From Escherichia coli (GTDB lineage: Bacteria > Pseudomonadota > Gammaproteobacteria > Enterobacterales > Enterobacteriaceae): 64,000 bases of DNA. Where the stretch lies: the NCBI RefSeq assembly GCF_044324785.1, contig NZ_CP172127.1. One strand, written 5' to 3'. Position 1 is the stretch's first letter; each line of letters begins with the position of its first letter. This document shows, in pieces, positions 41,832 to 64,000 of the stretch. Under the pieces are notes generated by a model. That model was not told the origin of the DNA, ran no database searches, and saw only the letters and a program-made list of their open reading frames with translations. Both the position numbers and the translations under genes were made by a program.

Positions 41832-41873
41832 AACTATCGAGTGCCGGAGAGTTACTTCCGGCACCGTCCTTAC

Positions 41874-43337: not shown

Positions 43338-43385
43338 CGTGTTATGCCTGCGAAAAAGGAGAGGGGGTGAGCCTCTCCGGGAGGG

Positions 43386-43991
43386 TTATTTGATGTAGTG
43401 GACGTGCTCGCAAATCTCTTCCACGATGGGATCGCGGCGTTCGGCGAACAGCTTTTTGTTTTCGGCTATCAGGTTGTTGCCGTGGGTATCAATAGAGACA
43501 ATCAGCGGACCGAACTCTTTGACCCGGCAGACCCACAGCGACTCCGGCATCCCGAGTTCTGTCCAGTGCACTTCTTCAATCTCTTCCACCTGGGTTGCCG
43601 CCAGTACTGCGCAGCCTGCCGGGAAAATCACATGCAGCGCCTTGAATTTCTGGCAGCCTTCTTCGGTCAGCGGCCCCATTCCGCCTTTGCCGACCACCAG
43701 TTTCACGCCGGTCTGTTCGATAAATTCACGTTCAAAACTTTCCATACGCATACTGGTTGTCGGGCCGACGGATACCATCTCCCATTTGTCGCCGTTTTTG
43801 CGCACGATGGGGCCAGCGTGGAAAATCGCTTTGCCGTTGAGATCGTAAGGGATCGGACGTTTCAGTTCGATCAAGCGGCGGTGACAAACGTCGCGGCAGG
43901 TTACCAGCGTACCGGTCAGGTAGATCACATCGCCGACGCGAATATCTTGCAGATCTTCAGCTTTGATCGGGGTTGTCAGGATCTTTTTCAT
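43386..43991 (-). CDS. ttdB: L(+)-tartrate dehydratase beta subunit TtdB
   Basis: 201-aa ORF; fumarate hydratase class I C-terminal-like; overlaps ttdA stop. Confidence 0.9.
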
Positions 43992-44899
43992 AACGCGCTC
44001 CGGGTGTGAGACAGATTTTCAAAGGTGAGATCGGCATGAACCAGCAGTGTGCCGCGACGATGCGCCCAGCAGCCTGTAGAAACAGCAACGCCGATGGTTG
44101 ACGGATGGCGGGCGGCAGATTCGATATGTACGCCCATCACTGAACTGTTGCCAGTCAGCCCTTGTGGACCAATCCCCAGACGGTTGAGTCCTTCTTCCAG
44201 GCGTACTTCCAGCTCTGCCGCTTTTGGATTTGGATGGCGGCTGCCAATCGGGCGCAAAATGGCTTTACGCGAGAGCACTGCGGCGGTTTCCACCGAGGTG
44301 GCGATGCCCACGCCTACCAGTACCGGTGGACAGGCGTTTACGGCGAGGGTGGAGATATTTTCGAAGACGAATTTCACCACGCCTTCGTATCCTTCCGACG
44401 GCATTAACACTTTCGAACGACCAGGTAGTGTGCAGCCGCCGCCTGCCATGTAAACTTCGATTTCCGCATCGTCACCGTCGGGGATGATATCCCAAGTGAC
44501 CCACGGTACGCCGCTGCCGGTATTTTTGCCGGTGTTCACTTCGTCAAAAATTTCTACCGCATTGTGACGCAGTGGCGCTTTGACGGTTGCCTCTTCCACG
44601 GCTTGCTTAAGAATGCTTTGCAGCTCGCCAAGCAGTGGGAAACGGGAACCGACCTTAACAAAAAACATGATTTCGCCGGTGTCCTGGCAGGCCGGGCGAT
44701 TCAGGTCGATTGCTTTTTGCATGTTGTCGAACATCGTGTGGTAGATGATTTTCCCCATCGACGACGTTTCGGCATCCTTTAGCTGTTTTAGTTTGTCCAC
44801 CACGTCATCGGGCATTCGGGTAGAAATCATGGCGGTAAAGTTAGCGACAATCTCCGTCAACTTATTCACTGCCTGTTGCTTATTACTTTCGCTCATCAT
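43988..44899 (-). CDS. ttdA: L(+)-tartrate dehydratase alpha subunit TtdA
   Basis: 303-aa ORF; Fe-S hydro-lyase alpha-type. Confidence 0.9.
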
Positions 44900-45105
44900 G
44901 GCAACTCCAGTTTATGTATTTGTCTGGAAAAATTCACCGCCACAAACTACCACTAAAAATGTGGTTTTATATTTTTTGCCGCCGTGAATATGTAATTCAC
45001 AGTTCGTGAATCAACGCGAAAATAAGAATGAATATTGCGCCAGAGCAGGGAATGGCAATGTTTTGCGAAATACACTGCGCTTATCACAACTGCGGATAAT
45101 TAACG

Positions 45106-46038
45106 ATGCTGAATAGCTGGCCTTTAGCCAAAGATTTGCAGGTACTGGTAGAAATCGTCCACAGCGGGAGTTTTAGCGCCGCAGCGGCGACGCTTGGGCA
45201 AACGCCTGCATTTGTCACCAAGCGGATCCAAATCCTTGAAAATACGCTGGCAACAACGCTGCTGAACCGCTCCGCTCGCGGCGTGGCGCTGACTGAAAGT
45301 GGCCAACGTTGTTACGAGCATGCGCTGGAAATCCTCACCCAATATCAGCGACTGGTCGATGACGTTACGCAAATCAAAACGCGCCCGGAGGGGATGATTC
45401 GTATTGGCTGTAGTTTTGGTTTTGGGCGCAGCCATATTGCGCCAGCTATTACCGAACTGATGCGCAATTATCCTGAGTTACAAGTGCATTTTGAATTGTT
45501 CGATCGGCAAATTGATTTAGTGCAGGATAATATTGATCTGGATATTCGTATTAATGACGAAATTCCTGATTATTATATTGCGCATCTTTTGACAAAAAAT
45601 AAACGAATATTATGTGCTGCACCTGAGTATCTGCAAAAATATCCGCAGCCACAATCCTTGCAGGAATTAAGTCGTCATGACTGTCTGGTGACCAAAGAGC
45701 GTGATATGACCCACGGAATATGGGAGTTGGGGAACGGTCAGGAGAAAAAATCGGTGAAGGTAAGCGGGCACCTTTCCTCCAATAGTGGTGAGATTGTGCT
45801 GCAATGGGCGCTGGAAGGAAAAGGAATTATGCTGCGTTCTGAGTGGGATGTTTTGCCGTTTCTGGAGAGTGGCAAACTGGTGCGAGTATTGCCGGAGTAT
45901 GCACAAAGCGCCAATATCTGGGCTGTTTACCGGGAGCCGCTCTATCGCAGCATGAAATTACGTGTCTGCGTGGAATTTCTGGCGGCATGGTGCCAGCAAC
46001 GGCTGGGCAAGCCCGACGAAGGCTATCAGGTTATGTAG
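45106..46038 (+). CDS. ttdR: LysR-family activator of ttdAB, TtdR
   Basis: 310-aa ORF with N-terminal LysR HTH; divergent from ttdA. Confidence 0.88.
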
Positions 46039-46050
46039 ACTCGCGAAAAA

Positions 46051-46668
46051 TCACTCAGGATCCTTTTCGCGCTTTCTTTTGAATTTCGTCCAGATTTTTG
46101 TCTCTTGACGACGCCACAGACGCTGGATGTTGTCATGATGGCGCAGCAGGATCAGGCATGAGAGCATCGAAACCGGGAAGGTGAATTGTGGTTTAAACCA
46201 CCAGACGTAAAACGGAGCAATCAGTGCACTTACAATCGCTCCCAGCGACGAGTATCCGCTCAATAGCACGGTCAGTAACCAGGTTCCCGCCATTACTCCG
46301 GTGAGATCCCAGCCAATTGGTGCGATGGCACCAAAAGCGGTAGCAACGCCTTTTCCTCCTTTAAAACCGAAGAAAACGGGCCAGATGTGTCCAAGGCAGG
46401 CGGCGATGGCAATTAAGCCTAGCCAGAAGGGGCTGACACCTAATTCATACGCGCCCCAGACGGGCAACATTCCTTTCAGAACGTCGAAAATCAGTACTGC
46501 TACGGCTGCTCCCTTGCCACCGATACGTAACACATTGGTTGCGCCTGGATTGCCGGAGCCGCTGGTTCGCGGATCGGGCAGCCCACACAAGCGGCAAACC
46601 AGAATGGCACTGGAAATGGAGCCGCAGAGGTACGCGATGAGGATCATTCCAGGCGCGATTGCACTCAT
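46051..46668 (-). CDS. plsY: Glycerol-3-phosphate acyltransferase PlsY
   Basis: 205-aa membrane [48 protein letters not shown]. Confidence 0.92.
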
Positions 46669-46772
46669 AAGCTGTTCCGTTTTGAAAATTCGTGTTCAAC
46701 GATGAATCTGTGGATAATACGCACATTTCGCCGGAAGTGGTATCCGGTTAGCCAAAAAGCAGGCAGGACGTG

Positions 46773-47141
46773 ATGGATATTGTATTTATAGAGCAACTTT
46801 CGGTAATCACCACTATTGGTGTTTACGACTGGGAACAGACCATCGAACAGAAGTTAGTGTTCGATATCGAAATGGCGTGGGATAACCGTAAAGCGGCGAA
46901 AAGTGATGATGTGGCGGATTGCCTCAGTTACGCTGACATTGCAGAAACGGTGGTCAGCCATGTTGAGGGAGCGCGTTTTGCGTTGGTGGAGCGCGTGGCG
47001 GAAGAGGTGGCAGAATTACTGCTAACACGCTTTAACTCACCGTGGGTACGTATCAAACTCAGTAAGCCAGGCGCGGTGGCACGTGCCACGAATGTCGGCG
47101 TCATTATTGAGCGTGGCAATAATCCTAAAGAAAATAATTAA
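46773..47141 (+). CDS. folB: Dihydroneopterin aldolase FolB
   Basis: ORF 46770..47141, start at ATG 46773 (MDIVFIEQLSVITTIGVYDWEQTIEQK). Confidence 0.92.
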   Translation: MDIVFIEQLSVITTIGVYDWEQTIEQKLVFDIEMAWDNRKAAKSDDVADCLSYADIAETVVSHVEGARFALVERVAEEVAELLLTRFNSPWVRIKLSKPGAVARATNVGVIIERGNNPKENN

Positions 47142-47231
47142 TTTTACAGTTATAAAACCAAACGGCTATAACCGAGTCTTATTGCAGTATTTTTGACGAG
47201 CAATACATTTTTATTATTTAGGGGTTTATTG

Positions 47232-48053
47232 ATGAGCGATATGCACTCGCTGCTGGTAGCGGCAATATTGGGTGTGGTCGAAGGATTGACAGAATTTCTG
47301 CCGGTATCCAGCACAGGCCACATGATTATTGTCGGTCATTTGTTGGGATTTGAGGGAGATACGGCGAAAACCTTTGAAGTGGTGATCCAGTTAGGATCGA
47401 TTCTGGCTGTGGTTGTCATGTTCTGGCGACGTCTGTTTGGGCTGATCGGTATTCACTTTGGTCGCCCGTTGCAGCACGAAGGAGAAAGCAAAGGCCGTTT
47501 AACGCTGATCCACATTCTGCTTGGCATGATCCCGGCGGTGGTGCTGGGGTTGTTATTCCATGATGCTATCAAGTCCTTGTTTAATCCGATAAATGTGATG
47601 TATGCGCTGGTCGTTGGCGGTTTGTTGCTGATTGCCGCCGAATGCCTGAAACCAAAAGAACCGCGTGCGCCGGGTCTCGATGATATGACCTATCGTCAGG
47701 CGTTTATGATTGGTTGCTTCCAGTGTCTGGCGCTGTGGCCGGGTTTCTCTCGCTCCGGGGCGACCATTTCAGGTGGGATGCTGATGGGCGTGAGCCGTTA
47801 CGCTGCTTCCGAGTTCTCGTTCCTGCTGGCGGTGCCGATGATGATGGGTGCAACGGCGCTCGATCTCTACAAAAGCTGGGGCTTCCTGACAACCGGCGAT
47901 ATCCCGATGTTTGCCGTTGGGTTTATCACCGCTTTTGTGGTGGCGCTGATAGCGATTAAAACCTTCCTGCAATTGATTAAGCGCATTTCGTTTATCCCTT
48001 TCGCCATTTATCGCTTTATTGTGGCGGCTGCGGTGTATGTCGTGTTCTTTTGA
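47232..48053 (+). CDS. uppP: Undecaprenyl-diphosphatase UppP (BacA)
   Basis: ORF 47193..48053, start trimmed to [30 protein letters not shown] (273 aa). Confidence 0.92.
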
Positions 48054-48133
48054 TTGAGGAATAGTGTCGGATATGACGCTTGTGCGTCTTATCCGACCTG
48101 GCCGGTGTCTGCAATATATTGAAATTCAAGTGC

Positions 48134-49372
48134 TTAATCAGGCTTTGGGCAACGTTGTTCCTTCCAGTTGGCTACCGCCGCAATCCGCCGTCGGGTCAGC
48201 TCCTCGCGAATCTCCACACCTTTAAATCCCGCTTCAACGACCGCTTTTGTCGGCACTGACTGCGCCACTTCCCAGGCTTCGCGCAACCAGCGGCCTTGCG
48301 GGTAGTCCGCTGATTCAAAACCGGTTCTGCCGCGCACGTCAGCCTCGCTGGTCAGCGCCAGTTGCTCGACACGCTGCGGTTTACGCCAGGCGTCAATGGA
48401 ATCAAATAATTTGACGATGGTTTTTGGGTTCAGCATTGGGAAGGTGTGGATGAGATCGTGAAACTCAGCCACCAGTCGGGCTAAATCGCGAATTTCATTT
48501 GGCACGCGCAGACGCTGGCATAGTTGTTCCACTAACTTCACACCCGCCGGGCCATGACCATGATGACGCGGCCAAAGTTCTGGCGGCGTCAGTCCTTTAC
48601 CGAGATCGTGGCATAGCGTTGCGAAACGGACATCGACCTGCGGACTCAGCATCGCCGCCATTGAGAGCGTCATTAAGGTGTGAATACCGGTGTCGATTTC
48701 CGGATGCCACCTGGCAGGGGCCGGAACGCCAAACAGGGCGTCAATTTCCGGGAATAAAACGCGCAGTGCGCCGCAATCACGCAGTACCTGGAAGAACACC
48801 TGGGGATTGCGGGTAGTGAGGGCGCTTTCCGTCTCTTTCCACACCCGTTCAGGCGTCAGGTGTTCCAGTTCACCCGCGTGGATCATCTCGCGCATCAGCG
48901 CCAGAGTTTCATCGGCAATACGAAAACCGAGGTGGGCATAACGCGCAGCAAAACGCGCCACGCGCAGTACGCGTAACGGATCTTCGCCAAAAGCGGGGGA
49001 AACATGGCGCAACAGACGATTTTGCAGATCGCCCAGACCGTTGTACGGGTCGATAATCTCGCCGTTATCGTCCTGGGCCAGCGCATTAATGGTCAGATCG
49101 CGCCGCTTAAGATCATCTTCCAGCGTGACATCCGGTGCGGCATAGCAGGTAAAACCGGTGTAACCGGAACCGGATTTCCGTTCGGTTCGTGCCAGCGCAT
49201 ACTCTTCATGGGTTTGCGGATGCAGAAAAACAGGAAAATCGCGGCCTACCTGCTGGTAGCCCGCGTCGAGCATCTCCTGTGGCGTACTGCCGACTACTAC
49301 CCAATCTCTGTCTTTGACCGGTAGCCCTAACAATGCATCCCGAACAGCACCACCGACCAGATAAATCTTCAC
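48134..49372 (-). CDS. cca: CCA-adding tRNA nucleotidyltransferase Cca (HD domain)
   Basis: 412-aa [31 protein letters not shown]. Confidence 0.95.
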
Positions 49373-49435
49373 GCCATCATCCCTTCGTCAAATACACAAT
49401 TCCTAATAATAAGACAGTGCAACGAAGAAGGCGAT

Positions 49436-50056
49436 TTAGTTCATCCAGCGATCTTTACGTTTACGCGTTGGGATCAGGTGCGGCAGTACCAGGCCGAGCA
49501 GCAAGCCAAGCCCCAGCACGCCACCGCCATACATAAACCACTGCATGATGATGGTGCGCTGTTTGTCATCCAGCTGTACGCTGGCGGCATCGACCTTTTT
49601 CTGCGCGACAATCAGCTCGTTTTTCAGTTTCTGATTTTCTTCTTTTAACCCGTTGATCACGCTGTCGCTCTGCGCCACTTTTTGCTGCATTTCTGCGGTG
49701 CGCTGATTCCAGGTGTTATCGATATTGGTGAGCTTATCGGTCAGGGTTTTGACCTGATTTTCCAGATCTGGCACACGGGAGCGCAGGCTTGGCTCTGTGC
49801 TAAGTTGTTTCAACGGGATCCAGGCGGTACGGCCAGAGCTGTCTTTCACCTGGGCATAATTGGTGTTGGCGTCAGTTTGTAATAAGGTCACTTCCTCGCC
49901 GGCGTTAACCGTGCCCACGAGGCGATAATGGTCTCCCGGACCGCTACGGACCCAGGTGTTCAGTTCGTCAGAAACATAGCGCGTTTCTTCAGCGTGTGAG
50001 ACGGCAGTCGCGCTAAGTGCGAGTAAAGTTAATCCGATCAGGCGTAATTTTGGCAT
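49436..50056 (-). CDS. ygiM: SH3-domain membrane protein YgiM
   Basis: 206-aa ORF with signal peptide, central coiled region, C-terminal TM. Confidence 0.9.
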   Translation of the reverse strand: MPKLRLIGLTLLALSATAVSHAEETRYVSDELNTWVRSGPGDHYRLVGTVNAGEEVTLLQTDANTNYAQVKDSSGRTAWIPLKQLSTEPSLRSRVPDLENQVKTLTDKLTNIDNTWNQRTAEMQQKVAQSDSVINGLKEENQKLKNELIVAQKKVDAASVQLDDKQRTIIMQWFMYGGGVLGLGLLLGLVLPHLIPTRKRKDRWMN

Positions 50057-50297
50057 CAGGCTGTCGTTATTGTCATGGAAAGTGGAACGATAGTAGTGGC
50101 ATCAGTGTCGCTACGCAAAGCATTCGACATCAATCGGAATCCTCTGTGTCAGGTCTTGCCACTGCTTCAAACTTTTACGCCCGTCAAATTGCCCGTTGCA
50201 TGGCAATTTGGCGCAAAATACTATCTACTGACAAAAAAGATCGCATTAAGTTCGCCGTTCATCGTCACTTATGTGACATAACCGATAAGTAAAGGCT

Positions 50298-51599
50298 ATG
50301 GCTCAGGAAATCGAATTAAAGTTTATTGTTAATCACAGTGCCGTTGCGGCGCTGCGTGACCATCTCAATACGCTGGGCGGCGAGCACCATGACCCCGTGC
50401 AGTTGCTGAATATTTACTACGAAACGCCGGATAACTGGCTGCGTGGGCACGACATGGGCCTGCGTATTCGTGGCGAAAACGGTCGCTATGAGATGACCAT
50501 GAAAGTTGCAGGAAGAGTGACAGGCGGCTTACACCAGCGCCCGGAATATAACGTGGCGTTGAGCGAACCGACGCTCGACCTGGCGCAGTTACCGACGGAA
50601 GTCTGGCCGAATGGCGAATTGCCTGCCGATCTCGCTTCCCGCGTACAACCGCTGTTCAGCACCGATTTTTATCGCGAAAAGTGGCTGGTAGAGGTCGATG
50701 GTAGCCAAATTGAAATCGCCCTCGACCAGGGGGAAGTGAAAGCGGGGGAATTTGCTGAGCCTATCTGCGAGCTGGAACTGGAACTGCTTAGCGGCGACAC
50801 GCGCGCGGTGCTGAAACTGGCGAACCAACTGGTATCGCAAACCGGATTACGCCAGGGCAGCCTGAGCAAAGCGGCGCGTGGCTATCATCTGGCGCAGGGC
50901 AATCCCGCGCGTGAAATCAAACCGACCACCATTTTGCATGTTGCGGCAAAAGCTGATGTGGAACAGGGGCTGGAAGCGGCGCTCGAGCTGGCGTTAGCGC
51001 AATGGCAGTATCATGAAGAACTGTGGGTACGTGGCAACGATACGGCGAAAGAGCAGGTGCTGGCAGCCATTGGCCTTGTTCGCCATACGCTGATGCTGTT
51101 CGGTGGCATTGTGCCGCGTAAAGCGAGCACTCACTTACGTGATTTACTGACTCAATGCGAAGCGACCATCGCTTCTGCGGTGTCTGCCGTAACGGCGGTC
51201 TACTCTACCGAAACGGCAATGGCGAAGCTGGCGTTGACCGAATGGCTGGTAAGCAAAGCCTGGCAGCCGTTTTTAGATGCCAAAGCGCAGAGTAAAATGA
51301 GCGATTCCTTCAAACGCTTTGCCGATATCCATCTTTCCCGCCATGCCGCTGAACTGAAAAGCGTTTTCTGCCAGCCGTTGGGCGATCGCTACCGTGACCA
51401 GTTGCCACGCCTGACGCGTGATATTGACTCAATCCTGTTGCTGGCGGGTTACTACGATCCTGTCGTCGCGCAAGCCTGGCTGGAGAACTGGCAGGGGCTG
51501 CGTCACGCTATTGCGACCGGACAACGCATTGAAATTGAACATTTCCGTAATGAGGCAAACAATCAGGAACCGTTCTGGTTGCACAGCGGAAAACGTTAA
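50298..51599 (+). CDS. ygiF: Inorganic triphosphatase YgiF (CYTH-CHAD)
   Basis: 433-aa [27 protein letters not shown] (CYTH signature EIELKF). Confidence 0.9.
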
Positions 51600-51621
51600 T
51601 CAGGCAAGGATAAAATCGCTT

Positions 51622-54462
51622 ATGAAGCCGCTCTCTTCACCATTACAGCAGTACTGGCAGACCGTTGTTGAGCGGCTGCCAGAGCCTTTAGCCGAGGAAT
51701 CACTTAGCATACAGGCGAAGTCAGTACTTACTTTCAGTGATTTTGTGCAGGACAGCGTGATTGCGCATCCAGAGTGGCTGACGGAACTGGAAAGCCAACC
51801 GCCGCAGGCCGACGAATGGCAGCATTACGCTGCCTGGTTGCAGGAGGCGCTCAGTAATGTGAGTGACGAAGCCGGGTTAATGCGCGAGCTGCGGCTATTC
51901 CGGCGGCGCATTATGGTGCGCATCGCCTGGGCGCAAACGCTGGCACTGGTTACTGAAGAGAGCATTTTGCAGCAGCTCAGTCATCTGGCGGAGACGCTGA
52001 TTGTTGCGGCGCGTGACTGGCTGTATGACGCCTGCTGCCGCGAGTGGGGAACGCCGTGCAATGCGCAGGGCGAAGCGCAACCGCTGCTGATTTTAGGCAT
52101 GGGTAAGCTGGGTGGCGGGGAATTGAATTTCTCCTCAGATATCGATCTGATTTTTGCCTGGCCGGAACATGGTTGTACCCAGGGCGGACGCCGGGAACTG
52201 GATAACGCCCAGTTTTTTACCCGCATGGGGCAGCGGCTGATTAAAGTGCTGGATCAACCAACGCAGGATGGCTTCGTCTATCGCGTGGATATGCGACTGC
52301 GTCCGTTTGGCGAAAGTGGCCCGCTGGTGCTGAGCTTTGCGGCGCTGGAAGATTATTACCAGGAGCAGGGGCGCGACTGGGAGCGTTACGCGATGGTCAA
52401 GGCGCGGATTATGGGCGATAGCGAAGGCGTCTATGCTAACGAGTTGCGTGCGATGCTGCGCCCGTTTGTTTTCCGTCGTTACATCGATTTCAGCGTGATT
52501 CAGTCGCTGCGCAACATGAAAGGAATGATTGCCCGTGAAGTGCGTCGACGCGGTTTGACCGACAACATCAAACTTGGCGCAGGCGGCATTCGCGAAATTG
52601 AATTTATCGTCCAGGTGTTCCAGCTCATTCGCGGCGGGCGTGAACCGTCGCTGCAATCGCGCTCTTTACTGCCAACGCTCAGCGCCATTTCCGCGCTGCA
52701 TCTGCTTTCTGAAAACGATGCTGAACTATTGCGAGTGGCGTATCTGTTCCTGCGGCGTCTGGAAAACCTGCTGCAAAGCATTAACGACGAACAAACCCAG
52801 ACGCTTCCTTCTGATGAGCTTAACCGTGCGCGGCTGGCGTGGGCGATGGACTTTGCTGACTGGCCGCAACTGACCGGGGCGCTGACCGTACATATGACCA
52901 ATGTGCGTCGGGTGTTTAATGAATTGATTGGCGACGATGAAAGTGAAACTCAGGAAGAGTCGCTGTCGGAACAGTGGCGTGAGCTGTGGCAGGATGCGTT
53001 GCAGGAAGATGACACCACGCCAGTGCTTGCGCATCTTAGCGAGGATGATCGCAAACAGGTGCTAACGCTGATTGCTGATTTTCGCAAAGAGCTGGATAAG
53101 CGTACCATCGGGCCGCGCGGGCGTCAGGTGCTCGACCATCTGATGCCGCATCTGCTAAGTGATGTCTGTGCGCGTGAAGACGCTGCTGTCACGCTGTCGC
53201 GCATTACCGCCTTGCTGGTGGGAATTGTTACCCGCACTACCTATTTAGAATTGCTCAGTGAATTCCCCGCGGCGCTTAAGCATTTGATTTCTCTGTGTGC
53301 CGCATCGCCGATGATTGCCAGCCAGCTAGCGCGTTATCCATTATTGCTGGACGAACTGCTCGATCCAAACACTCTCTACCAACCGACGGCGACGGATGCC
53401 TACCGTGATGAACTGCGCCAGTATTTGCTGCGCGTGCCGGAAGATGACGAAGAACAACAGCTTGAGGCGCTGCGTCAGTTCAAACAGGCGCAACTGTTAC
53501 GTATTGCGGCAGCGGATATCGCCGGTACGCTACCGGTAATGAAAGTGAGCGATCACTTAACCTGGCTGGCGGAGGCTATGATAGATGCCGTCGTTCAGCA
53601 GGCGTGGGTTCAAATGGTTGCCCGCTACGGTAAGCCAAATCACCTGAACGAACGCGAAGGGCGTGGTTTTGCGGTGGTCGGCTACGGCAAGCTGGGCGGC
53701 TGGGAGTTAGGCTACAGTTCCGATCTTGACCTGATCTTCCTCCATGATTGCCCGATGGATGCGATGACTGACGGCGAGCGGGAAATCGACGGGCGACAGT
53801 TTTATCTGCGTCTGGCGCAACGCATTATGCATCTGTTCAGTACGCGAACCTCTTCCGGCATTTTGTATGAAGTGGATGCACGGTTGCGTCCGTCCGGGGC
53901 GGCGGGAATGCTGGTGACATCCGCAGAAGCGTTTGCCGATTATCAGAAAAACGAGGCCTGGACGTGGGAACATCAGGCGCTGGTGCGTGCGCGTGTAGTG
54001 TACGGCGATCCGCAGCTCACCGCGCACTTTGACGCAGTACGCCGGGAGATTATGACGCTGCCGCGCGAAGGCAAAACCCTGCAAACAGAAGTGCGGGAAA
54101 TGCGCGAGAAAATGCGTGCCCATCTCGGCAATAAACATCGCGATCGCTTTGATATCAAAGCCGATGAAGGCGGAATTACCGATATCGAATTTATTACTCA
54201 ATATCTGGTGTTGCGCTACGCTCATGAAAAACCGAAGTTAACGCGCTGGTCAGACAACGTGCGCATTCTGGAACTACTGGCGCAAAACGACATTATGGAA
54301 GAGCAGGAAGCGATGGCGCTGACCCGTGCTTACACGACGCTGCGCGATGAACTTCATCATCTGGCATTACAGGAATTGCCGGGCCATGTGTCGGAGGATT
54401 GCTTCACCGCAGAGCGTGAACTGGTGCGGGCAAGCTGGCAGAAGTGGCTGGTGGAAGAATGA
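51622..54462 (+). CDS. glnE: Glutamine synthetase adenylyltransferase/deadenylase GlnE
   Basis: ORF 51418..54462, start trimmed to ATG 51622 ([19 protein letters not shown], 946 aa); two nucleotidyltransferase domains. Confidence 0.95.
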
Positions 54463-54509
54463 AGTATGGTATTATCGCGCGCAAATTTTGAATCTCTCAG
54501 GAGACAGGA

Positions 54510-55943
54510 ATGAAAGTAACGCTGCCAGAGTTTGAACGTGCAGGAGTGATGGTGGTTGGTGATGTGATGCTGGATCGTTACTGGTACGGTCCCACCAGCC
54601 GTATCTCGCCGGAAGCGCCGGTGCCCGTGGTTAAAGTAAATACCATCGAAGAACGTCCGGGCGGCGCGGCTAACGTGGCGATGAATATCGCTTCTCTCGG
54701 TGCTAATGCACGCCTGGTCGGGTTGACGGGCATTGACGATGCGGCGCGCGCGCTGAGTAAATCTCTGGCCGACGTCAACGTCAAATGCGACTTCGTTTCT
54801 GTACCGACGCATCCGACCATCACCAAATTACGGGTACTTTCCCGCAACCAACAGCTGATCCGTCTGGATTTTGAAGAAGGTTTCGAAGGGGTTGATCCGC
54901 AGCCGCTGCACGAGCGGATTAATCAGGCGCTGAGTTCGATTGGCGCGCTGGTGCTCTCTGACTACGCGAAAGGTGCGCTGGCAAGCGTGCAGCAGATGAT
55001 CCAACTGGCGCGTAAAGCGGGCGTTCCGGTGCTGATTGATCCAAAAGGTACCGATTTTGAGCGCTACCGCGGCGCTACGCTGTTAACGCCGAATCTCTCG
55101 GAATTTGAAGCTGTTGTCGGTAAATGTAAGACCGAAGAAGAGATTGTTGAACGCGGCATGAAACTGATTGCCGATTACGAACTCTCGGCTCTGTTGGTGA
55201 CCCGTTCCGAACAGGGTATGTCGCTGCTGCAACCGGGTAAAGCGCCGCTGCATATGCCAACCCAGGCGCAGGAAGTGTATGACGTTACCGGTGCGGGCGA
55301 CACGGTGATTGGCGTCCTGGCGGCAACGCTGGCTGCGGGTAATTCACTGGAAGAAGCCTGCTTCTTTGCCAATGCGGCGGCAGGCGTGGTGGTCGGCAAA
55401 CTGGGGACATCCACGGTATCGCCGATCGAGCTGGAAAATGCAGTACGTGGACGTGCAGATACCGGCTTTGGTGTGATGACCGAAGAGGAACTGAAGCTTG
55501 CTGTAGCGGCGGCGCGTAAACGTGGTGAAAAAGTGGTAATGACCAACGGTGTCTTCGATATCCTACATGCCGGGCACGTCTCTTATCTGGCAAATGCCCG
55601 CAAGCTGGGTGACCGCTTGATTGTTGCCGTCAACAGCGATGCCTCCACCAAACGGCTGAAAGGGGATTCCCGCCCCGTTAACCCGCTCGAACAGCGTATG
55701 ATTGTGCTGGGCGCACTGGAAGCGGTCGACTGGGTAGTGTCGTTTGAAGAAGACACGCCGCAGCGCTTGATCGCCGGGATCCTGCCAGACCTGCTGGTGA
55801 AAGGTGGCGACTATAAACCAGAAGAGATTGCCGGGAGTAAAGAAGTCTGGGCCAACGGCGGCGAAGTGTTGGTGCTCAACTTTGAAGACGGTTGCTCGAC
55901 GACCAACATCATCAAGAAGATCCAACAGGATAAAAAAGGCTAA
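54510..55943 (+). CDS. hldE: Bifunctional D-beta-D-heptose 7-phosphate kinase / heptose 1-phosphate adenylyltransferase HldE
   Basis: 477-aa [44 protein letters not shown]. Confidence 0.95.
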
Positions 55944-56022
55944 CCGGAAAGCGGTTCACAGATCTCGCTTCGAACCTGGCAGGCCTATTGACGCTGTTGT
56001 TTTTTCAACCTAGAGTAAAGGA

Positions 56023-56166
56023 ACAAGGGTAAGGGAGGATTTCTCCCCCCTCTGAATTGGTTGTTAATAAGCCTGGAAACTTACTAGTAACAACACAATC
56101 AGTATGATGACGAGCTTCATCATAACCCTTTCCTTCTATAAGGCCCCTTCCTCGGGAGGGGCTTTC
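56023..56166 (+). ncRNA. Sib-family antisense sRNA (SibD/SibE-like), copy 1
   Basis: Near-consensus promoter TTGACG-17 nt-TAGAGT at 55988-56016; transcript would fully cover the ibs ORF on the opposite strand; GC hairpin + U-run at about 56142-56165; ends approximate. Confidence 0.55.
56064..56123 (-). CDS. Ibs-family hydrophobic toxin peptide (19 aa, MMKLVIILIVLLLVSFQAY), copy 1
   Basis: Minus-strand ATGATGAAGCTCGTCATCATACTGATTGTGTTGTTACTAGTAAGTTTCCAGGCTTATTAA; typical Ibs length and composition. Confidence 0.7.
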   Translation of the reverse strand: MMKLVIILIVLLLVSFQAY

Positions 56167-56398
56167 CCGTTTCAGCTCCTTGCTGACTCCCCGATTGTTG
56201 ATGAGCGCCAGACCCCGCGCAACGCTTTCCCAGAGGCAGTTTTCCTTTCCCCGAGCGGTCACGCAAAACGTTGCAACAGCCTGATCATTTGCACCTTTTA
56301 GCGGAACGCAGATATAAAAAATCCCCGGTTTTTTGGGCCAGGGATATGTGTTAATGAAACCTTCTTGACGCTGTTTTTTTTTCAACCTAAAGTAAAGG

Positions 56399-56542
56399 AA
56401 CAAGGGTGAGGGAGGATTTCTCCCCCCTCTGATTGGCTGTTAGTAAGCGTGGAAACTTATCAGTAACAACACAATCAGTATGATGATGAGCTTCATCATA
56501 ACCCTTTCCTTATACAAGGCCCCTTCTTCGGGAGGGGCTTTC
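56399..56542 (+). ncRNA. Sib-family antisense sRNA, copy 2
   Basis: Promoter TTGACG-17 nt-TAAAGT; hairpin + U-run at about 56518-56541; antisense to second ibs ORF; ends approximate. Confidence 0.55.
56440..56499 (-). CDS. Ibs-family hydrophobic toxin peptide (19 aa, MMKLIIILIVLLLISFHAY), copy 2
   Basis: Minus-strand ATGATGAAGCTCATCATCATACTGATTGTGTTGTTACTGATAAGTTTCCACGCTTACTAA. Confidence 0.7.
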   Translation of the reverse strand: MMKLIIILIVLLLISFHAY

Positions 56543-56737: not shown

Positions 56738-58257
56738 TTATTCTACGTTTTCTGCGACGGGAGTTGTTGAGGTTAAGGGGGAAGTCAATGCCGCCAGCGA
56801 GCCGCCTGAAACGCCAATTTCATTGAGTAAGGAGTCAATCAGCGGTGCTTGTGTGCGGTAAGAGAGTGCGGCTGATAACGCTTGTTCCGCCAGGTTTCCG
56901 CCCCCCACATTACCCGTGTTTGCATCACCCGCAGCGCTGCCACGATTCAGACCATCGACCTGAATAATCTTGATACCGTCAATAGATTTCATCGGCTCAA
57001 CGGATTTTTCTATTACCGCAGGTAGCGCCTGCAACAAGGCCAGTTTGAATTTAAGGCTGGTTTGTTCATCAGAAAGTACGTTGATAGCATCGTTCAGCGC
57101 ACGTTGTGCTTCTGCTTCCGCCAGACCCTTTTTACGTGTAGCTTCGGCTAACTCAACGATAGCCGCCGCCTGCATCTCTGCGGCTTCTTTTTCTGCTTTT
57201 GCCCGGACAGTCAGTTCAACTGCTTTGGTTTCTGCATCCTGCGCGGCAGCGATTAGGGCAACTTGTTTAGCACGATCGGCTTCTGCGGTCTGGCGAGTGG
57301 TTTCTACGTTTTGTTGGGCGCTTACTGCTTCTGCGAGTGCAAGGTTAGCACGCGCTTCTGCCTGGGACTGTTGTTCCGATTTGGCGGCAATAGCGATCGA
57401 TTTCGTCTGGTTGGCGATTTCGGTGACCTGCTGCTGTTCGATCTCTTTAATGCGAACTTCACGTTCAGCTTCAACTTTTCTGGAACGGACGGCCTGTTCG
57501 CGGTCGATTTCCGTTTCCTGAATCTGTCGTTCAGCCAGAATTCGCGTCTGCTCTGCTTCCCGACGACGCTCGGCCTCAAAAGCTGCAATTTTCGCATTCT
57601 GCTCAGCGGTACGGGTTTTAACCTGCTGCTCCTGTTCAAGCGTCATAAACGCTTCTTGTTGTTCAATCTCCAGCTTCCGCGAAAGCGCATCACGATTTTT
57701 CTCACGCACCGCAACTTCTACATCCTGTTCAACTTCGTTACGTTCGCGACGACGGCGCTCCGTCTCCTGCGTCAGCTTGGTTAAACCTTCGGCGTCAAAG
57801 GCGTTGTTAGGATTGAAATGTTCTTTCGACGTCTGGTTAAAGTTGGTAAGTGAAACGCTTTCCAGTTCCAGACCGTTTTTCGACAGATCTTCAGCTACGG
57901 TATTTTGTACTCCCTGCACGAAGTTCTCGCGGGTATCCTGTAACTCATGCATGGTCATTTGTGCAGCTGTTGCACGGAGGGCATCGACGAATTTATCTTC
58001 AACCAACATACGTAAATCTTCTGGTGATAGCGTGCGTTGCCCCAACGTTTGGGCAGCGGTGGCAATCCCTTCTACTGAAGGTTTTACCCGCACAAAGAAA
58101 GCGACTACTACATCGACGCGCATACGATCTTTCGTAATCAGGCTATCAATGGTTGAGCGGCTGACTTCCAGCTTCAGAGTATTCATATTGATGGGGATTA
58201 TTTCATGAAAGATCGGCATCACGATTGCGCCACCGCTCATTACCACTTTTTGCCCAC
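56738..58257 (-). pseudogene. yqiK: yqiK (flotillin/SPFH-family protein), C-terminal 503 codons, separated from its 5' end by an IS insertion
   Basis: ORF 56738..58246 begins VVMSGGAIVMPIFHEIIPINMNTLKLEV, continuing the reading frame that starts at 59465 on the far side of the IS. Confidence 0.85.
58249..58257. repeat. Target-site duplication, left copy (TTTGCCCAC)
   Basis: Identical 9-mer at 59315-59323 directly flanks the other inverted repeat. Confidence 0.8.
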
Positions 58258-59314
58258 GGCTTTGTTGAATAAATCAGATTTCGGGTAAGTCTCCCCCGTA
58301 GCGGGTTGTGTTTTCAGGCAATACGCACGCTTTCAGGCATACCTGCTTTCGTCATTTTGTTCAGCGCTCGTACCAGGGCCATAGCCTCCGCAACCTGACC
58401 ATCGTAGTCACGCAGCGTCAGTGAACCCCCGAACAGCTGTTTTACCCGGTACATCGCCGTTTCCGCTATCGAGCGACGGTTGTAATCTGTTGTCCATTTC
58501 CACCGCGCATTACTCCCGGTCATTCGCTGATTAGCCACTGCACGGTTACGGTCTGCATATTCACCGGGCCAGTAACCCGCACCTTTTCGGGGAGGGATAA
58601 GCGCGCTGATTTTCTTACGCCGCAGTTCATCGTGACATAGCCGGGTATCGTAAGCGCCATCGGCGGCGGCTGACCTGATTTTCCGGTGGGTTTGCCGGAT
58701 TAACCCGGGGAAGGCCTCTGAGTCCGTAACGTTGTTCAGCGACAGGTCAGCGCAGATGATTTCATGTGTTTTACTGTCAACGGCGAGATGCAGCTTACGC
58801 CAGATACGGCGGCGTTCCTGGCCATGCTTTTTGACTTTCCACTCGCCTTCACCGAAGACCTTCAGCCCGGTGGAATCAATTACCAGGTGTGCGATTTCAC
58901 CCCGGGTGGGCGTTTTGAAACTGACATTAACCGACTTTGCCCGCCTGCTGACACAGCTGTAATCCGGGCAGCGTAGCGGAACGTTCATCAGAGAAAAAAT
59001 GGAATCAATAAAGCCCTGCGCAGCCCGCAGGGTCAGCCTGAATACGCGTTTAATGACCAGCACAGTAGTGATGGCAAGGTCAGAATAGCGCTGAGGTCTG
59101 CCTCGTGAAGAAGGTGTTGCTGACTCATACCAGGCCTGAATAGCTTCATCATCCAGCCAGAAAGTTATGGAGCCACGGTTGATGAGGGCTTTATTGTAGG
59201 TGGGCCAGTTGGTGATTTTGAACTTTTGCTTTGCCACGGAACGGTCTGCGTTGTCGGGAAGATACGTGATCTGATCCTTCAACTCAGCAAAAGTTCGATT
59301 TATTCAACAAAGCC
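58258..59314 (-). mobile_element. IS903-family insertion sequence (IS5 family, IS903 group), 1057 bp
   Basis: Perfect 18-bp terminal inverted repeats GGCTTTGTTGAATAAATC (58258-58275; complement at 59297-59314); length and ends match recalled IS903/IS102; flanked by 9-bp direct repeat. Confidence 0.9.
58314..59237 (-). CDS. IS903-family DDE transposase (307 aa from GTG; ORF track extends it to 322 aa from TTG at 59282)
   Basis: Protein ...KFKITNWPTYNKALINRGSITFWLDD...DGAYD...; fills the element between the inverted repeats. Confidence 0.85.
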   Translation of the reverse strand: MAKQKFKITNWPTYNKALINRGSITFWLDDEAIQAWYESATPSSRGRPQRYSDLAITTVLVIKRVFRLTLRAAQGFIDSIFSLMNVPLRCPDYSCVSRRAKSVNVSFKTPTRGEIAHLVIDSTGLKVFGEGEWKVKKHGQERRRIWRKLHLAVDSKTHEIICADLSLNNVTDSEAFPGLIRQTHRKIRSAAADGAYDTRLCHDELRRKKISALIPPRKGAGYWPGEYADRNRAVANQRMTGSNARWKWTTDYNRRSIAETAMYRVKQLFGGSLTLRDYDGQVAEAMALVRALNKMTKAGMPESVRIA

Positions 59315-59323
59315 TTTGCCCAC
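59315..59323. repeat. Target-site duplication, right copy (TTTGCCCAC)
   Basis: Matches 58249-58257. Confidence 0.8.
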
Positions 59324-59465
59324 CTAAACCAGTACGAACAAAAGCTTGCTCTGCCGAAGCGCGACGATAGAGCCTGGCGAAAATAATTCCAATAATAAAC
59401 AGAATGCATACGGCAATAATCGCGGTAAACATCCAGGAGGGCACAGAATTAACAATATCATCCAT
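59315..59465 (-). pseudogene. yqiK: yqiK 5' fragment (first 50 codons, including the N-terminal membrane anchor)
   Basis: Minus strand from ATG 59465: MDDIVNSVPSWMFTAIIAVCILFIIGIIFARLYRRASAEQAFVRTGLGGQ, then runs into the IS inverted repeat. Confidence 0.85.
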
Positions 59466-59491
59466 TATTAAATTTCCTTTTGATTAATAAA

Positions 59492-60121
59492 TTACAATAT
59501 TTGGGGCCAGGGATTGTTTTCCGCCAAATATCGCGTTGCAGAAAGTCGGCAAATAATTAACACTTTGTCTCCTTTAGTGAAAATTTTTCCTTCTTCAGGC
59601 TCCAGTAGTAAATAATGTATTTGGCCAAATTGATCGGTGAGTTTTCCTTCGCAGGGATTACCTGAAGTGGCCTGATGACCGGTAATTAACGCCATGCTAC
59701 CAATATATTCTTCTTCTGTAATAGCTGAACTATGGTCGCGTGGAATCCAGGGCGCAACTATTTTACCGGTATAATGCACCGCAATAATCGTAAACAGTAA
59801 ACTGACAGGAACCACGAACAGGTTCGAAAGTGGTGATTGCCAGACCATGATGCAGGCATGCTGCAACAGGATGCCAATAAGACCAAAAAAACCAGCCAGT
59901 AAGCAGAGAACGACGAGAGCTGGCAATCTTCCGATATTGAGATAATGAAGTGCCTGGCTAATATGACCTGTGGTTATGGAATCATAATGGTCAAGATGTG
60001 CATCAAGAGCACCGGAGAGCATGTGACCGCAGATAAGCGCAAAAATTTCTAAAAGGCCGATCAACAGTACAAAGGAAATAGCGAAAAGATAAGGGGTATT
60101 ATAGTCGGCGAATAAAATCAT
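59492..60121 (-). CDS. yqiJ: NfeD-like inner membrane protein YqiJ
   Basis: 209-aa [40 protein letters not shown]; immediately upstream of yqiK. Confidence 0.9.
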
Positions 60122-60389
60122 ATGTCACTCCAATGTCCATTTAGTGACGCAATATTTACTTTGGGATAGTTTCCTTGCTTACATTTATCTTTGTTAATAA
60201 TAACACATGTTAGAGAAGTTCTGGAAGAGAAAGTCTTTTAATATGGTTTTTTATTTTTCACTAAAAAGTGTGATCGGGGACAATATATTTACGCACGTTA
60301 TGTTTAAAGGCACTACACTGATTGGGGAATACTGAAATCAGAAAAAGCATATGGCCTTAAAAGGTATGCGATAACCGGAGGATGTGCTT

Positions 60390-60590
60390 ATGGATCATAG
60401 TCTTAATTCTTTAAATAATTTCGATTTCCTGGCGCGTAGTTTTGCCAGAATGCACGCAGAAGGTCGCCCGGTCGATATTCTGGCCGTTACTGGTAACATG
60501 GATGAAGAACATAGAACCTGGTTTTGCGCACGTTATGCCTGGTATTGCCAACAGATGATGCAAACCAGAGAACTTGAATTAGAACACTGA
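60390..60590 (+). CDS. glgS: GlgS (surface composition regulator)
   Basis: ORF 60384..60590 (GTG), start trimmed to ATG 60390: [59 protein letters not shown] aaccggagga upstream. Confidence 0.88.
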
Positions 60591-60624
60591 TATTACGGGC
60601 CGTCTGGCCCGTTTTTGTGTTGCT

Positions 60625-60924
60625 TTATTCTGCTTTATCAATAGGCGGGATAGCCGGAGGAGATTGAAGATCTGCTACCGAATTATTGCGCGCTTCCAGT
60701 TCACTGATGCGCTGCTCTAGTAATGCCAGTTTCTCACGAGTCCGTAACAGGACTTGCGTCTGTACGTCGAATTCTTCGCGGCTCACCAGATCGAGACGCG
60801 TCAGCTGCGCTTGTAGGGTTTGGCGGATTTTTTTCTCCACATCTTCCCCGAACTCCCTGATTCCTTTAGGCATTGATTCGTGAACCTGGCGAGCGATTTG
60901 CTCAATTTTTTTCGGGTCAATCAT
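60625..60924 (-). CDS. ubiK: Ubiquinone biosynthesis accessory factor UbiK (YqiC)
   Basis: ORF 60625..60984, start trimmed to [35 protein letters not shown]; coiled-coil. Confidence 0.8.
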
Positions 60925-61039
60925 TGTAGTTTCCCTGTACTGATAGGTGTTGAGTGCCATTGTAGTGCGATAAGGGTAAGTCATAAACCAGAATTATGTG
61001 AAGCTATGCGTTGCTGCCGCTAATCATTAGCGTTATAGT

Positions 61040-61215
61040 GAATCCGCTTATTCTCAGGGCGGGGCGAAATTCCCCACCGGCGGTAAATCAACTCAGTTGA
61101 AAGCCCGCGAGCGCTTTGGGTGCGAACTCAAAGGACAGCAGATCCGGTGTAATTCCGGGGCCGACGGTTAGAGTCCGGATGGGAGAGAGTAACGATTCTG
61201 TCGGGCATGGACCCG
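61040..61215 (+). promoter_or_regulatory. FMN riboswitch (RFN element) in the ribB leader
   Basis: Conserved RFN blocks agggcggggcgaaattccccaccggcggtaa ... agcccgcgagcg ... ggtgtaattccgg ... gccgacggttagagtccggatgggagaga upstream of ribB. Confidence 0.75.
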
Positions 61216-61297
61216 CTCACGTTATTTTGGCTATATGCCGCCACTCCTAAGACTGCCCTGATTCTGGTAACCATAATTTTAGTGAGGTTTTTTTACC

Positions 61298-61951
61298 ATG
61301 AATCAGACGCTACTTTCCTCTTTTGGTACGCCTTTCGAACGTGTTGAAAATGCACTGGCTGCGCTGCGTGAAGGACGCGGTGTAATGGTGCTTGATGATG
61401 AAGACCGTGAAAACGAAGGCGATATGATCTTCCCGGCAGAAACCATGACCGTTGAGCAGATGGCGCTGACCATTCGCCACGGTAGCGGTATTGTTTGCCT
61501 GTGCATTACTGAAGATCGCCGTAAACAACTCGATCTGCCAATGATGGTAGAAAATAACACCAGCGCCTATGGCACCGGTTTTACCGTGACCATTGAAGCG
61601 GCTGAAGGTGTGACTACCGGTGTTTCTGCCGCTGACCGTATTACGACCGTTCGCGCAGCGATTGCCGATGGCGCAAAACCGTCAGATCTGAATCGCCCAG
61701 GCCACGTTTTCCCACTTCGCGCTCAGGCTGGTGGTGTACTGACGCGTGGCGGCCATACTGAAGCGACTATTGATCTGATGACGCTGGCAGGCTTTAAACC
61801 GGCTGGTGTGCTGTGTGAGCTGACTAATGACGATGGCACGATGGCGCGTGCACCAGAGTGCATTGAGTTTGCCAATAAACACAATATGGCGCTCGTGACT
61901 ATTGAAGACCTGGTGGCATACCGTCAGGCACATGAGCGTAAAGCCAGCTGA
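61298..61951 (+). CDS. ribB: 3,4-dihydroxy-2-butanone 4-phosphate synthase RibB
   Basis: 217-aa [53 protein letters not shown]. Confidence 0.96.
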
Positions 61952-61984
61952 AAACCGCTGCTTAATTTACTGCCTTAATCAAGA

Positions 61985-62019
61985 AACCGAAGTTGTAGCA
62001 GGCTTCGGTTTTTATTTTT
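61985..62019 (+). terminator. ribB rho-independent terminator
   Basis: Stem aaccgaag...cttcggtt followed by tttatttttc. Confidence 0.65.
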
Positions 62020-62212
62020 CCCTGCTATGTAAGATGTTAATTCCGCTTCTCTTTCTATGAGAAAATTTCATTAATATCAGGCATTCTTTTTCATTATGAT
62101 CAAAATCATATAATTGTTCCGTTATTATGCGACCATATGAATATATCCGAAAAAGGATATGTGAAATTTATGCGCTAAATGTTTAGTATTGTTAAATATT
62201 AAGGGTAAAAGG

Positions 62213-62383
62213 ATGTTTATCGCCTGGTACTGGATTGTATTGATTGCTCTGGTTGTGGTGGGTTATTTCCTGCATTTGAAACGATATTGTCGGGCGTTTC
62301 GCCAGGACAGAGACGCCCTGCTTGAAGCGCGGAACAAATACTTAAACAGTACGAGAGAAGAGACAGCCGAAAAGGTAGAATAA
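62213..62383 (+). CDS. Hypothetical small membrane protein (56 aa, one predicted TM helix)
   Basis: ATG 62213 preceded by aaggg Shine-Dalgarno-like sequence; MFIAWYWIVLIALVVVGYFLHLKRY... hydrophobic helix then charged tail; not recognised. Confidence 0.4.
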   Translation: MFIAWYWIVLIALVVVGYFLHLKRYCRAFRQDRDALLEARNKYLNSTREETAEKVE

Positions 62384-62440
62384 GACTTTAGTGAAGCTGA
62401 CAGAAGTTGTCCATGCGCTGGACAACTTCTGATGTTGCTT

Positions 62441-63214
62441 TTAACCAATTCCCGCCGTTTGTAGCAGCACTAAACTGAATCCCATCACTGACATTCCACA
62501 TAGTACGCCATAGCTGGGGTTATTATTGGGGTCAATCTCTTTGGCGAGCGGCATTAATTCATCAACCGAGAGCGCCACCATAATTCCTGCAACCGCCGCC
62601 ATGATTGCCGCCATGACCACCGGAGAAATCATGCTACCGAGGATTAACCATGCCAGCACACCACCAAGAATTTCTGCCAGTCCGGAAATCCCCGCCCACA
62701 GAATCGCGGTACGTTTCGATCCTGTTGCAGCGTAAACCGGCCCTGCAACCGCCAGACCTTCAGGAATATTGTGCAACGCTACGGCCAGGGCGATACCAAA
62801 TCCCAGCTCCAGGTTGCTGCTCGCCGTGACAAAGGTGGCAATCCCTTCCGGGAAGTTATGCAGACTGATGCCGAGAGTGAGCAGAATGGCTGTGCGCTTG
62901 ATCGATTTTGGCAACGGCTGCACCGATTTTTGCATTAAATCCTGCGGATGTGCATGTGGCAACATGCGGTCTAGACCAAAATAGCCAAGCAGACCGAAGA
63001 TAAACATTCCATAACCCAACACAGGCGACATTCCTTCGGCGGCTAGTGCGGCAGGAAGCATTTCCATTAATGAGATGAGCAACATGATCCCCGCCGCAAA
63101 TCCTAGCGAAAACGCCAGTAAGCGGTTCGAGGGTTTTTGCCCGAGAACGCCGAGAAACGCGCCAATAAACGTGGCTGCCCCCGCCAGTATGGTCAGAATG
63201 AGAGGTACTGACAT
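62441..63214 (-). CDS. zupT: Zinc transporter ZupT (ZIP family)
   Basis: ORF 62441..63256, start trimmed to [22 protein letters not shown] (257 aa). Confidence 0.92.
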
Positions 63215-63329
63215 CGACAACTCCTTATAAATCTTCACCTTCAGGCAGATCGTCAAAATAACTGATGATCATCATCATTGTTATCCGGGTTCTTACTCCG
63301 CCGAACAAGCGTATTGTGAGGATATCAAA

Positions 63330-64000
63330 ATGACACCTTTAGTTAAGGATATCATCATGTCTTCAACACGTATGCCAGCATTGTTTTTAGGTCACGGTAG
63401 TCCGATGAACGTGCTGGAAGATAATTTGTATACCCGCAGCTGGCAGAAGTTGGGGATGACATTGCCACGCCCGCAAGCGATTGTGGTGGTTTCGGCTCAC
63501 TGGTTTACCCGTGGAACAGGAGTGACCGCGATGGAGACGCCGCCCACGATTCATGACTTTGGTGGCTTCCCGCAGGCGCTGTACGATACGCATTATCCTG
63601 CTCCGGGTTCGCCTGCGCTGGCACAGCGTCTGGTTGAGCTGTTAGCGCCGATCCCGGTGACGCTGGATAAAGAAGCCTGGGGCTTTGACCACGGTTCCTG
63701 GGGCGTGCTGATTAAGATGTATCCTGACGCGGATATCCCGATGGTGCAGTTGAGTATCGACAGTAGCAAACCTGCCGCCTGGCATTTCGAAATGGGGCGC
63801 AAACTGGCAGCGCTGCGAGATGAAGGAATAATGTTGGTCGCCAGCGGTAACGTGGTGCATAACCTGCGCACAGTGAAGTGGCACGGTGATAGTTCACCGT
63901 ATCCGTGGGCGACGTCGTTTAATGAGTATGTGAAAGCGAATCTGACGTGGCAAGGGCCGGTAGAGCAGCATCCTCTGGTGAATTATCTCGACCATGAAGG
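63330..64000 (+). CDS. ygiD: 4,5-DOPA dioxygenase extradiol-like protein YgiD, 5' part (runs past window end)
   Basis: Open frame from ATG 63330 (MTPLVKDIIMSSTRMPALFLGHGSPMNVLEDN...) to the window end; alternative start at ATG 63357; not in ORF track because no stop lies in the window. Confidence 0.85.
   Translation, partial: MTPLVKDIIMSSTRMPALFLGHGSPMNVLEDNLYTRSWQKLGMTLPRPQAIVVVSAHWFTRGTGVTAMETPPTIHDFGGFPQALYDTHYPAPGSPALAQRLVELLAPIPVTLDKEAWGFDHGSWGVLIKMYPDADIPMVQLSIDSSKPAAWHFEMGRKLAALRDEGIMLVASGNVVHNLRTVKWHGDSSPYPWATSFNEYVKANLTWQGPVEQHPLVNYLDHE

Follow-up and report, generated by a model that had tools for sequence, protein, structure and literature searches.

The window analysed here is a 64,000-nucleotide (64-kb) stretch of the Escherichia coli contig NZ_CP172127.1 (assembly GCF_044324785.1). 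The locus of interest within it is the yqiJ-yqiK pair, in which the flotillin-like gene yqiK carries a complete insertion sequence (IS), IS903B. The element is bounded by inverted repeats and by a target-site duplication (TSD), and it splits yqiK into a short 5′ remnant and a long 3′ remnant, while yqiJ, the first gene of the pair, is intact. The positions of these features and of others in the window are collected in Table 1.

Table 1. Features of the yqiJ-yqiK locus and other features of the window (IRL and IRR, terminal inverted repeats of the element; ORF, open reading frame; aa, amino acids)
Feature	Position	Strand	Evidence or remark
Complete IS903B insertion sequence, 1057 bp	58258..59314	-	direct reading, repeat finding, pattern search
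IRL, transposase-start side, GGCTTTGTTGAATAAATC	59297..59314	-	repeat finding, pattern search
IRR, GGCTTTGTTGAATAAATC	58258..58275	+	repeat finding, pattern search
TSD copy 1, TTTGCCCAC (GTGGGCAAA in gene orientation; yqiK codons 48-51)	58249..58257	.	
TSD copy 2, TTTGCCCAC	59315..59323	.	
IS903B transposase gene, GTG start, 307 aa + stop	58314..59237	-	ORF, NF033579, exact-sequence match
5′ yqiK remnant, 53-aa ORF: 50 native residues + RLC, TGA in IRL	59304..59465	-	
3′ yqiK remnant, codons 51-553: most of Band_7, coiled-coil region, Flot	56738..58257	-	
yqiJ (NfeD-like / OB-fold partner), intact, first gene of the yqiJK pair	59492..60121	-	product = YQIJ_ECOLI; Pfam YqiJ_N, YqiJ_OB
SIB antitoxin RNA (Rfam RF00113)	55988-56138	+	
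SIB antitoxin RNA (Rfam RF00113)	56365-56514	+	
FMN riboswitch upstream of ribB	61046-61194	+	standard feature
tRNA gene	35090-35162	-	standard feature

A first-pass annotation of this DNA had described an IS903-family element of 1057 bp with perfect 18-bp inverted repeats, a DDE transposase and flanking 9-bp direct repeats, and had named yqiK as the gene that it interrupts. All of this was borne out. The 18-mer GGCTTTGTTGAATAAATC occurs exactly twice in the window, in inverted orientation at the two ends of the element, and nowhere else even with 3 mismatches permitted, a setting for which 0.05 chance matches are expected per 64-kb window. Beyond these perfect 18 bp the terminal repeats retain imperfect similarity out to 33 nucleotides (79%). 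GGCTTTGTTGAATAAATC is the canonical IS903 inverted repeat, which is corroborated by the identity of the element to annotated IS903B copies described below. The direct repeat TTTGCCCAC abuts both ends of the element as a perfect 9-bp duplication. This 9-mer alone is not rare, with 3 copies in the window versus 0.8 expected; it is its position against both inverted repeats, as predicted for a TSD, that identifies it as one. A duplication of 9 bp is the length given for IS903 (Table 1 of PMC2577343). Pattern search found only one IS903B copy within the window.

The element has a single long ORF, on the minus strand. It encodes 307 aa from the GTG start and 322 aa from an in-frame TTG at 59282, the latter being the form annotated by the Prokaryotic Genome Annotation Pipeline (PGAP) in the E. 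coli records retrieved (a coding sequence, CDS, of 969 nucleotides). The transposase matches the NCBIfam model NF033579 (transpos_IS5_2) over the whole profile (1-289 of 289) with 357.4 bits, for a cut-off of 140 bits. Its 307-aa form is exactly the NCBI ‘IS5-like element IS903B family transposase’, with at least 1000 contigs on record. The motifs VIDSTG (D121), ADGAYD (D193) and IAETAM (E259) are present, and these three acidic residues are presumably the catalytic DDE residues of the IS903 transposase. At the DNA level all 1057 bp match plasmid copies from E. coli, Klebsiella, Enterobacter, Citrobacter and Shigella with 100% identity; these copies, annotated in RefSeq as ‘IS5-like element IS903B’, served as a proxy for the reference IS903B. 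A copy is present on more than 5000 plasmids, 3037 of them from Klebsiella. The element is thus a bona fide plasmid-type IS903B, belonging to the IS903 group of the IS5 family, and it is apparently functional. Its identity to plasmid-borne IS903B shows the ongoing movement of a resistance-plasmid IS into the chromosome.

When 58258-59323 is deleted, i.e. the element together with one copy of the repeat, a 1662-nucleotide ORF of 553 aa is recovered, and its junction reads ...TGLGGQKVVMSGGAIVMPIF... The insertion point lies after nucleotide 151 of yqiK, and the gene is split after codon 50. The restored protein differs from YqiK of K-12 (WP_001311137.1) at 5 of 553 residues (99.1% aa identity). 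It carries PF01145 (Band_7/SPFH) at residues 39-192 (E 1.9e-18) and PF15975 (Flot) at residues 406-530 (E 1.2e-40). Its hydropathy peaks at residues 12-30, where the top 19-residue Kyte-Doolittle window, starting at residue 12, has a mean of 2.98; an N-terminal transmembrane segment of YqiK is stated in PMC10434171. No PDB sequence matched YqiK at E ≤ 0.001. A role of yqiJK as a defence system was considered and rejected, there being no PADLOC match.

At the nucleotide level the restored yqiK is 95.4% identical to the K-12 allele, with dS 0.20, dN 0.005 and dN/dS 0.026, and the low ratio indicates that YqiK is kept by purifying selection. Besides IS903B, no lesion was found in the restored ORF. 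This, together with the identity of the IS to circulating copies and the perfect duplication, points to a recent insertion into yqiK. The gene is strongly mosaic among E. coli: its 5′ 445 bp are 100% identical to many genomes, and the middle 445 bp are only 90-95% identical to most records (3343 of 5423). Relative to K-12 the nucleotide alleles are deeply diverged with the protein almost unchanged. The best match to yqiK in complete E. coli genomes is 98.5%.

The 5′ remnant keeps the native start of yqiK together with its Shine-Dalgarno sequence. Translation from this start would run past codon 50 into the element, where the sequence reads AGG CTT TGT TGA, and would stop after 53 residues at the TGA in the IRL, yielding the membrane anchor peptide only. 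This 53-aa fusion peptide is identical to WP_395765607.1 / XJR00887.1, ‘hypothetical protein ACHP5S_20530 [Escherichia coli]’. For annotation, XJR00887.1 is the 5′ remnant of yqiK plus three IS-encoded residues, and yqiK of this strain is a pseudogene interrupted by IS903B.

The 3′ remnant contains a 502-aa ORF that begins at a GTG (56738-58246, minus strand); an exact look-up of its product found none on record. The first-pass annotation had proposed that this product could be made only from an IS-borne or an internal start. The first of these routes is excluded because a TGA at 58276-58274, straddling the inner edge of the IRR, closes the frame, and no in-frame start follows before the native GTG at codon 52. 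Only internal starts are left, and those nearest the junction are weak: the pairing energy to the anti-Shine-Dalgarno sequence is -2.6 kcal/mol for GTG52 and -3.6 kcal/mol for ATG54, compared with -5.1 kcal/mol for ATG61 and -5.6 kcal/mol for the native yqiK start. The 3′ remnant is therefore predicted to be without an efficient start codon, the starts nearest the junction being weak or poorly placed. It had also been proposed that the insertion separates the first 50 codons, with the anchor, from the SPFH/flotillin body. The anchor is indeed cut off, but the break does not fall between anchor and body: it is located within the Pfam Band_7 envelope (39-192), 12 residues from its beginning, so that any product of the downstream part would be without the anchor and without the first 12-22 Band_7 residues. 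Likewise, the description of the yqiJ-yqiK operon as disrupted holds for yqiK and not for yqiJ, whose product is identical to YQIJ_ECOLI.

The allele could nevertheless be something other than a plain knock-out, if read-through mRNA gave rise to an anchor-less YqiK of about 493-502 aa, begun at GTG52, ATG54 or ATG61, with altered or dominant-negative activity. Read-through mRNA into the 3′ fragment is in itself plausible, since yqiK and the transposase gene are read in one direction and the minus strand has no terminator-like site between the transposase stop at 58314 and position 58246. Transcripts from both the yqiJ and the transposase promoters would be expected to extend into the fragment. 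A promoter scan of the IS gave, for the minus strand, a single weak sigma-70-like site (59222-59193, 9 of 12 positions), which is no more than in shuffled sequences. The pairing at ATG61 comes near that of the native start, and in other genomes interrupted by an IS, PGAP has annotated comparable 3′ fragments as CDSs for a ‘flotillin family protein’. On the other hand, the fragment has no in-frame IS-borne start, it would be deprived of the anchor and of the beginning of Band_7, and even an intact gene expresses little YqiK, YqiK-GFP produced from the native locus being undetectable in K-12 (PMC10434171). Efficient translation of the 3′ fragment from read-through mRNA does not seem plausible, and we consider a truncated product with an activity of its own to be very unlikely.

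Another way to dismiss the interruption would be to suppose that the assembler misplaced an IS copy into yqiK. IS903B must be multicopy in this genome, because a short-read contig stops inside it, and such repeats are prone to misassembly. This contig, assembled in Logan from SRR31073010, is 100% identical to positions 59286-64000 of the window and ends 29 nucleotides inside IS903B. It thus crosses the yqiK-IRL junction and gives it independent short-read support. The 53-aa fusion peptide has been recorded twice, in an NCBI genome and in the Logan assembly of the same run. Moreover, a misplaced repeat would not create the perfect 9-bp duplication of the yqiK target. A misassembly is for these reasons extremely improbable. 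An exact 40-mer over the right junction had no match among the species-representative (GTDB) genomes.

Other irregularities are on record near the insertion site. Peptides of 52 aa ending in ‘...GGQKW’ were found in 207 contigs; a -1 slip within the A5 run at 58247-58252 (yqiK codons 50-51) would give this ending. A frameshift hot spot was considered for them and rejected; they look like homopolymer sequencing error or intra-sample heterogeneity, and long-read homopolymer error is a likelier cause than a real hot spot because, in all 4 of the carrier genomes that were inspected, many genes in the neighbourhood are fragmented. Codon 50 of yqiK is also where many Logan contigs stop; these carry no IS sequence and most likely break at the same A-run. 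A peptide reading ‘...GLDRKSVV’ was discarded as an artefact, being a fusion to the Illumina adapter AGATCGGAAGAGCGTCGTGTAG.

The most probable explanation, which we hold with high confidence, is a single recent and simple transposition of IS903B into yqiK that left yqiJ intact and created an effectively null allele. A plasmid-type IS903B would have inserted into the chromosomal gene in one step, and the repair of a cut with the 9-bp stagger that is typical of IS903 would have produced the TSD. The native start would then yield only the anchor peptide, and the remaining 502 codons, with no IS-borne start and with poorly placed internal starts, would hardly be translated, making the strain effectively yqiK-null. 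YqiK function is presumably lost. Some observations weigh against this explanation or complicate it. The flanks of the insertion site, CACTT and CTAAA, match the preferred IS903 target motif at 4 of 10 positions only, this motif being WTTYA-N9-TRAAW with A/T-rich flanks according to Table 1 of PMC2577343. The yqiK site is not a textbook preferred target. However, the motif is a tendency and not a requirement. The strain itself is not among the complete genomes, where the best identity over the 16-kb flank is 97.8%, which leaves no clonal relative with an empty site for comparison. Finally, ATG61 has a moderate Shine-Dalgarno-like match and might allow some production, at a low level, of a cytosolic fragment truncated at its N terminus.

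The effect of the insertion on fitness is expected to be small. Deletion of yqiK in K-12, and even a quadruple SPFH mutant, leaves growth normal (PMC10434171), YqiK-GFP is undetectable as mentioned above, and enhanced swimming of a yqiK-deficient mutant is reported second-hand (in PMC7824781 and PMC10434171). An insertion with near-neutral consequences would agree with these reports. The strain can be regarded as a natural yqiK-null, yqiJ-plus mutant, usable for studying phenotypes of the poorly understood flotillin/NfeD pair of E. coli. The element and the mechanism are known, the anatomy is not new, and the finding is an ordinary one; nothing in it challenges current understanding.

IS insertions at this locus are recurrent in the species. 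The census was made on 5426 complete RefSeq E. coli genomes, and its counts are by genome and not by phylogenetically independent event. Segments of equal length (445 bp) were scored as split when they fell into two separate places in a genome. The restored segment that spans the 3′ end of yqiJ and the 5′ end of yqiK was split in 45 genomes, versus 3 for a mid-yqiK segment and 3 for a 3′ yqiK segment. The junction segment is uninterrupted in 5396 of the 5426 genomes, and the restored sequence is 100% identical to the sampled intact ones. The yqiJ gene was dropped as an extra control segment, being confounded by plasmid and second chromosomal copies.

IS903B lies at the yqiJK locus in 20 complete genomes, in none of them at the site used in the window. 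In isolate 23 (NZ_OW848980) it is found at +229 of yqiK with the duplication GCTTCAGAG. In a 19-genome ST167-like clone (e.g. NZ_CP025627) it sits in the 26-bp yqiJ-yqiK spacer with the duplication TTAATAAAT, yqiK being intact. The fit to the IS903 target motif is 6 of 10 positions for the former site and 8 of 10 for the latter. IS1 is responsible for a large part of the other split genomes. Among the examples located, it is inserted, relative to the yqiK ATG, at -140 in 19KM1863, at -89 with a deletion in WCHEC000837, at +38 in ET776 (co-oriented) and in strain H1 (opposite orientation), at +142 in MB10 (NZ_CP073988), at about +252 in EC21Z-151, at about +280 with a deletion reaching yqiH in HNSQ2209, and at +551 in PSJ-23; in FDAARGOS_1281 it occupies the yqiJ-yqiK spacer. 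The IS1 duplication of MB10, CTGGTTTAG, directly abuts the IS903B duplication of the window, GTGGGCAAA. The alleles of isolate 23, the ST167-like clone and MB10 are independent events, as each has a different 9-bp target. In all, the region from -140 to +280 relative to the yqiK ATG holds at least about 11 independent IS1/IS903B events. All three IS903B insertions, including that of the window, are co-oriented with yqiK, but IS1 occurs both ways (near the yqiK 5′ end, it is co-oriented in 29 genomes, with about 15 distinct place lengths, and opposite in 7 genomes, with 7 lengths), and an orientation bias was not significant.

The zone in which these elements land, comprising the 3′ end of yqiJ, the spacer and the 5′ end of yqiK (59300-59600 of the window), has 36-38% GC versus 49-55% in the rest of yqiK. 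IS1 prefers AT-rich targets. The AT-rich zone also fits IS903, since its target flanks are A/T-rich (PMC2577343). The clustering is most simply read as a mutational landing zone in dispensable DNA, because the insertions break yqiK, yqiJ or neither, and only about 1% of genomes are affected.

The recurrence of insertions in the 5′ part of yqiK could instead reflect positive selection for its knock-out, for example through motility or envelope stress. The excess of split junction segments over the two yqiK control segments, the number of independent events and the reported better swimming of the mutant speak for such selection. However, the insertions of the ST167 clone, FDAARGOS_1281 and WCHEC000837 lie in the spacer or in yqiJ and spare yqiK, which makes the direction of the effect inconsistent. 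The base composition of the zone fits target choice, the small share of genomes affected does not favour selection, and the long-term dN/dS shows that the protein is normally kept. We regard selection for the knock-out as unlikely. It is similarly doubtful that the AT-rich stretch of about 420 bp, which begins at the 3′ end of yqiJ and reaches about codon 95 of yqiK, is a genuine multi-IS hot zone in which insertions are perhaps kept because rewiring or loss of YqiK is advantageous in some lineages, including the multidrug-resistant ST167-like clone; the allele of the window would then be a case of convergent evolution. For population genomics, the clustering where yqiJ and yqiK meet is a modest curiosity and may offer a natural test of target choice versus selection.

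Around the interrupted gene the gene order is standard: hldE, two SIB/ibs repeats, yqiK, yqiJ, glgS, ubiK, the FMN riboswitch and ribB. The two tandem SIB RNAs score 142 and 150 bits against RF00113. They form a pair of sibD/sibE-type repeats between hldE and yqiK, whose ibs toxin genes are expected to lie on the other strand, and these repeats explain two near-identical spurious ORFs of about 65 aa and 96 aa found there. After glgS comes ubiK directly (60591-60624), the K-12 yqiGHI fimbrial cluster being absent as in XJ6.1 and EC21Z-151. Positions 40000-56000 of the window (ttdT to hldE) have a top identity of 97.8% among complete RefSeq E. coli genomes, and the lineage of this strain seems, on such matches, to be absent or rare among complete genomes of the species. 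Homologues of yqiJ, 97-99% identical to the chromosomal gene, are found at 31 plasmid places in E. coli (e.g. NZ_AP027857.1 and NZ_JBSWBI010000004.1). The genes yqiJ/yqiK have been reported on IncB/O/K/Z and blaCMY-2 plasmids (PMC8549364, PMC7824781), and a copy on a plasmid could complement a chromosomal knock-out.

Compared with YqiK of K-12, the restored product is alike in its 553 aa, its N-terminal anchor, its Band_7 and Flot domains and in having yqiJ directly upstream. Here, however, the gene is split into parts of 53 and 502 aa and is a pseudogene of the YqiK family. The element itself agrees with the RefSeq IS903B copies in length, inverted repeats, 9-bp duplication and transposase, and only its insertion site is specific to this strain. 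The alleles of the ST167-like clone and of isolate 23 share the locus, the IS and the orientation with the window but have different 9-bp targets, and that of MB10 shares the locus and has IS1 instead of IS903B. IS903B is known to inactivate mgrB (colistin resistance; PMC10513040) and wbaZ (phage resistance; PMC9769513) in Klebsiella. These events involve the same element and the same simple insertion, in or just upstream of a non-essential chromosomal gene, from resident plasmids. In contrast to the yqiK insertion, for which no selective agent is known and whose K-12 counterparts, the deletion mutants, grow normally (PMC10434171), the mgrB and wbaZ events have a clear selected phenotype.

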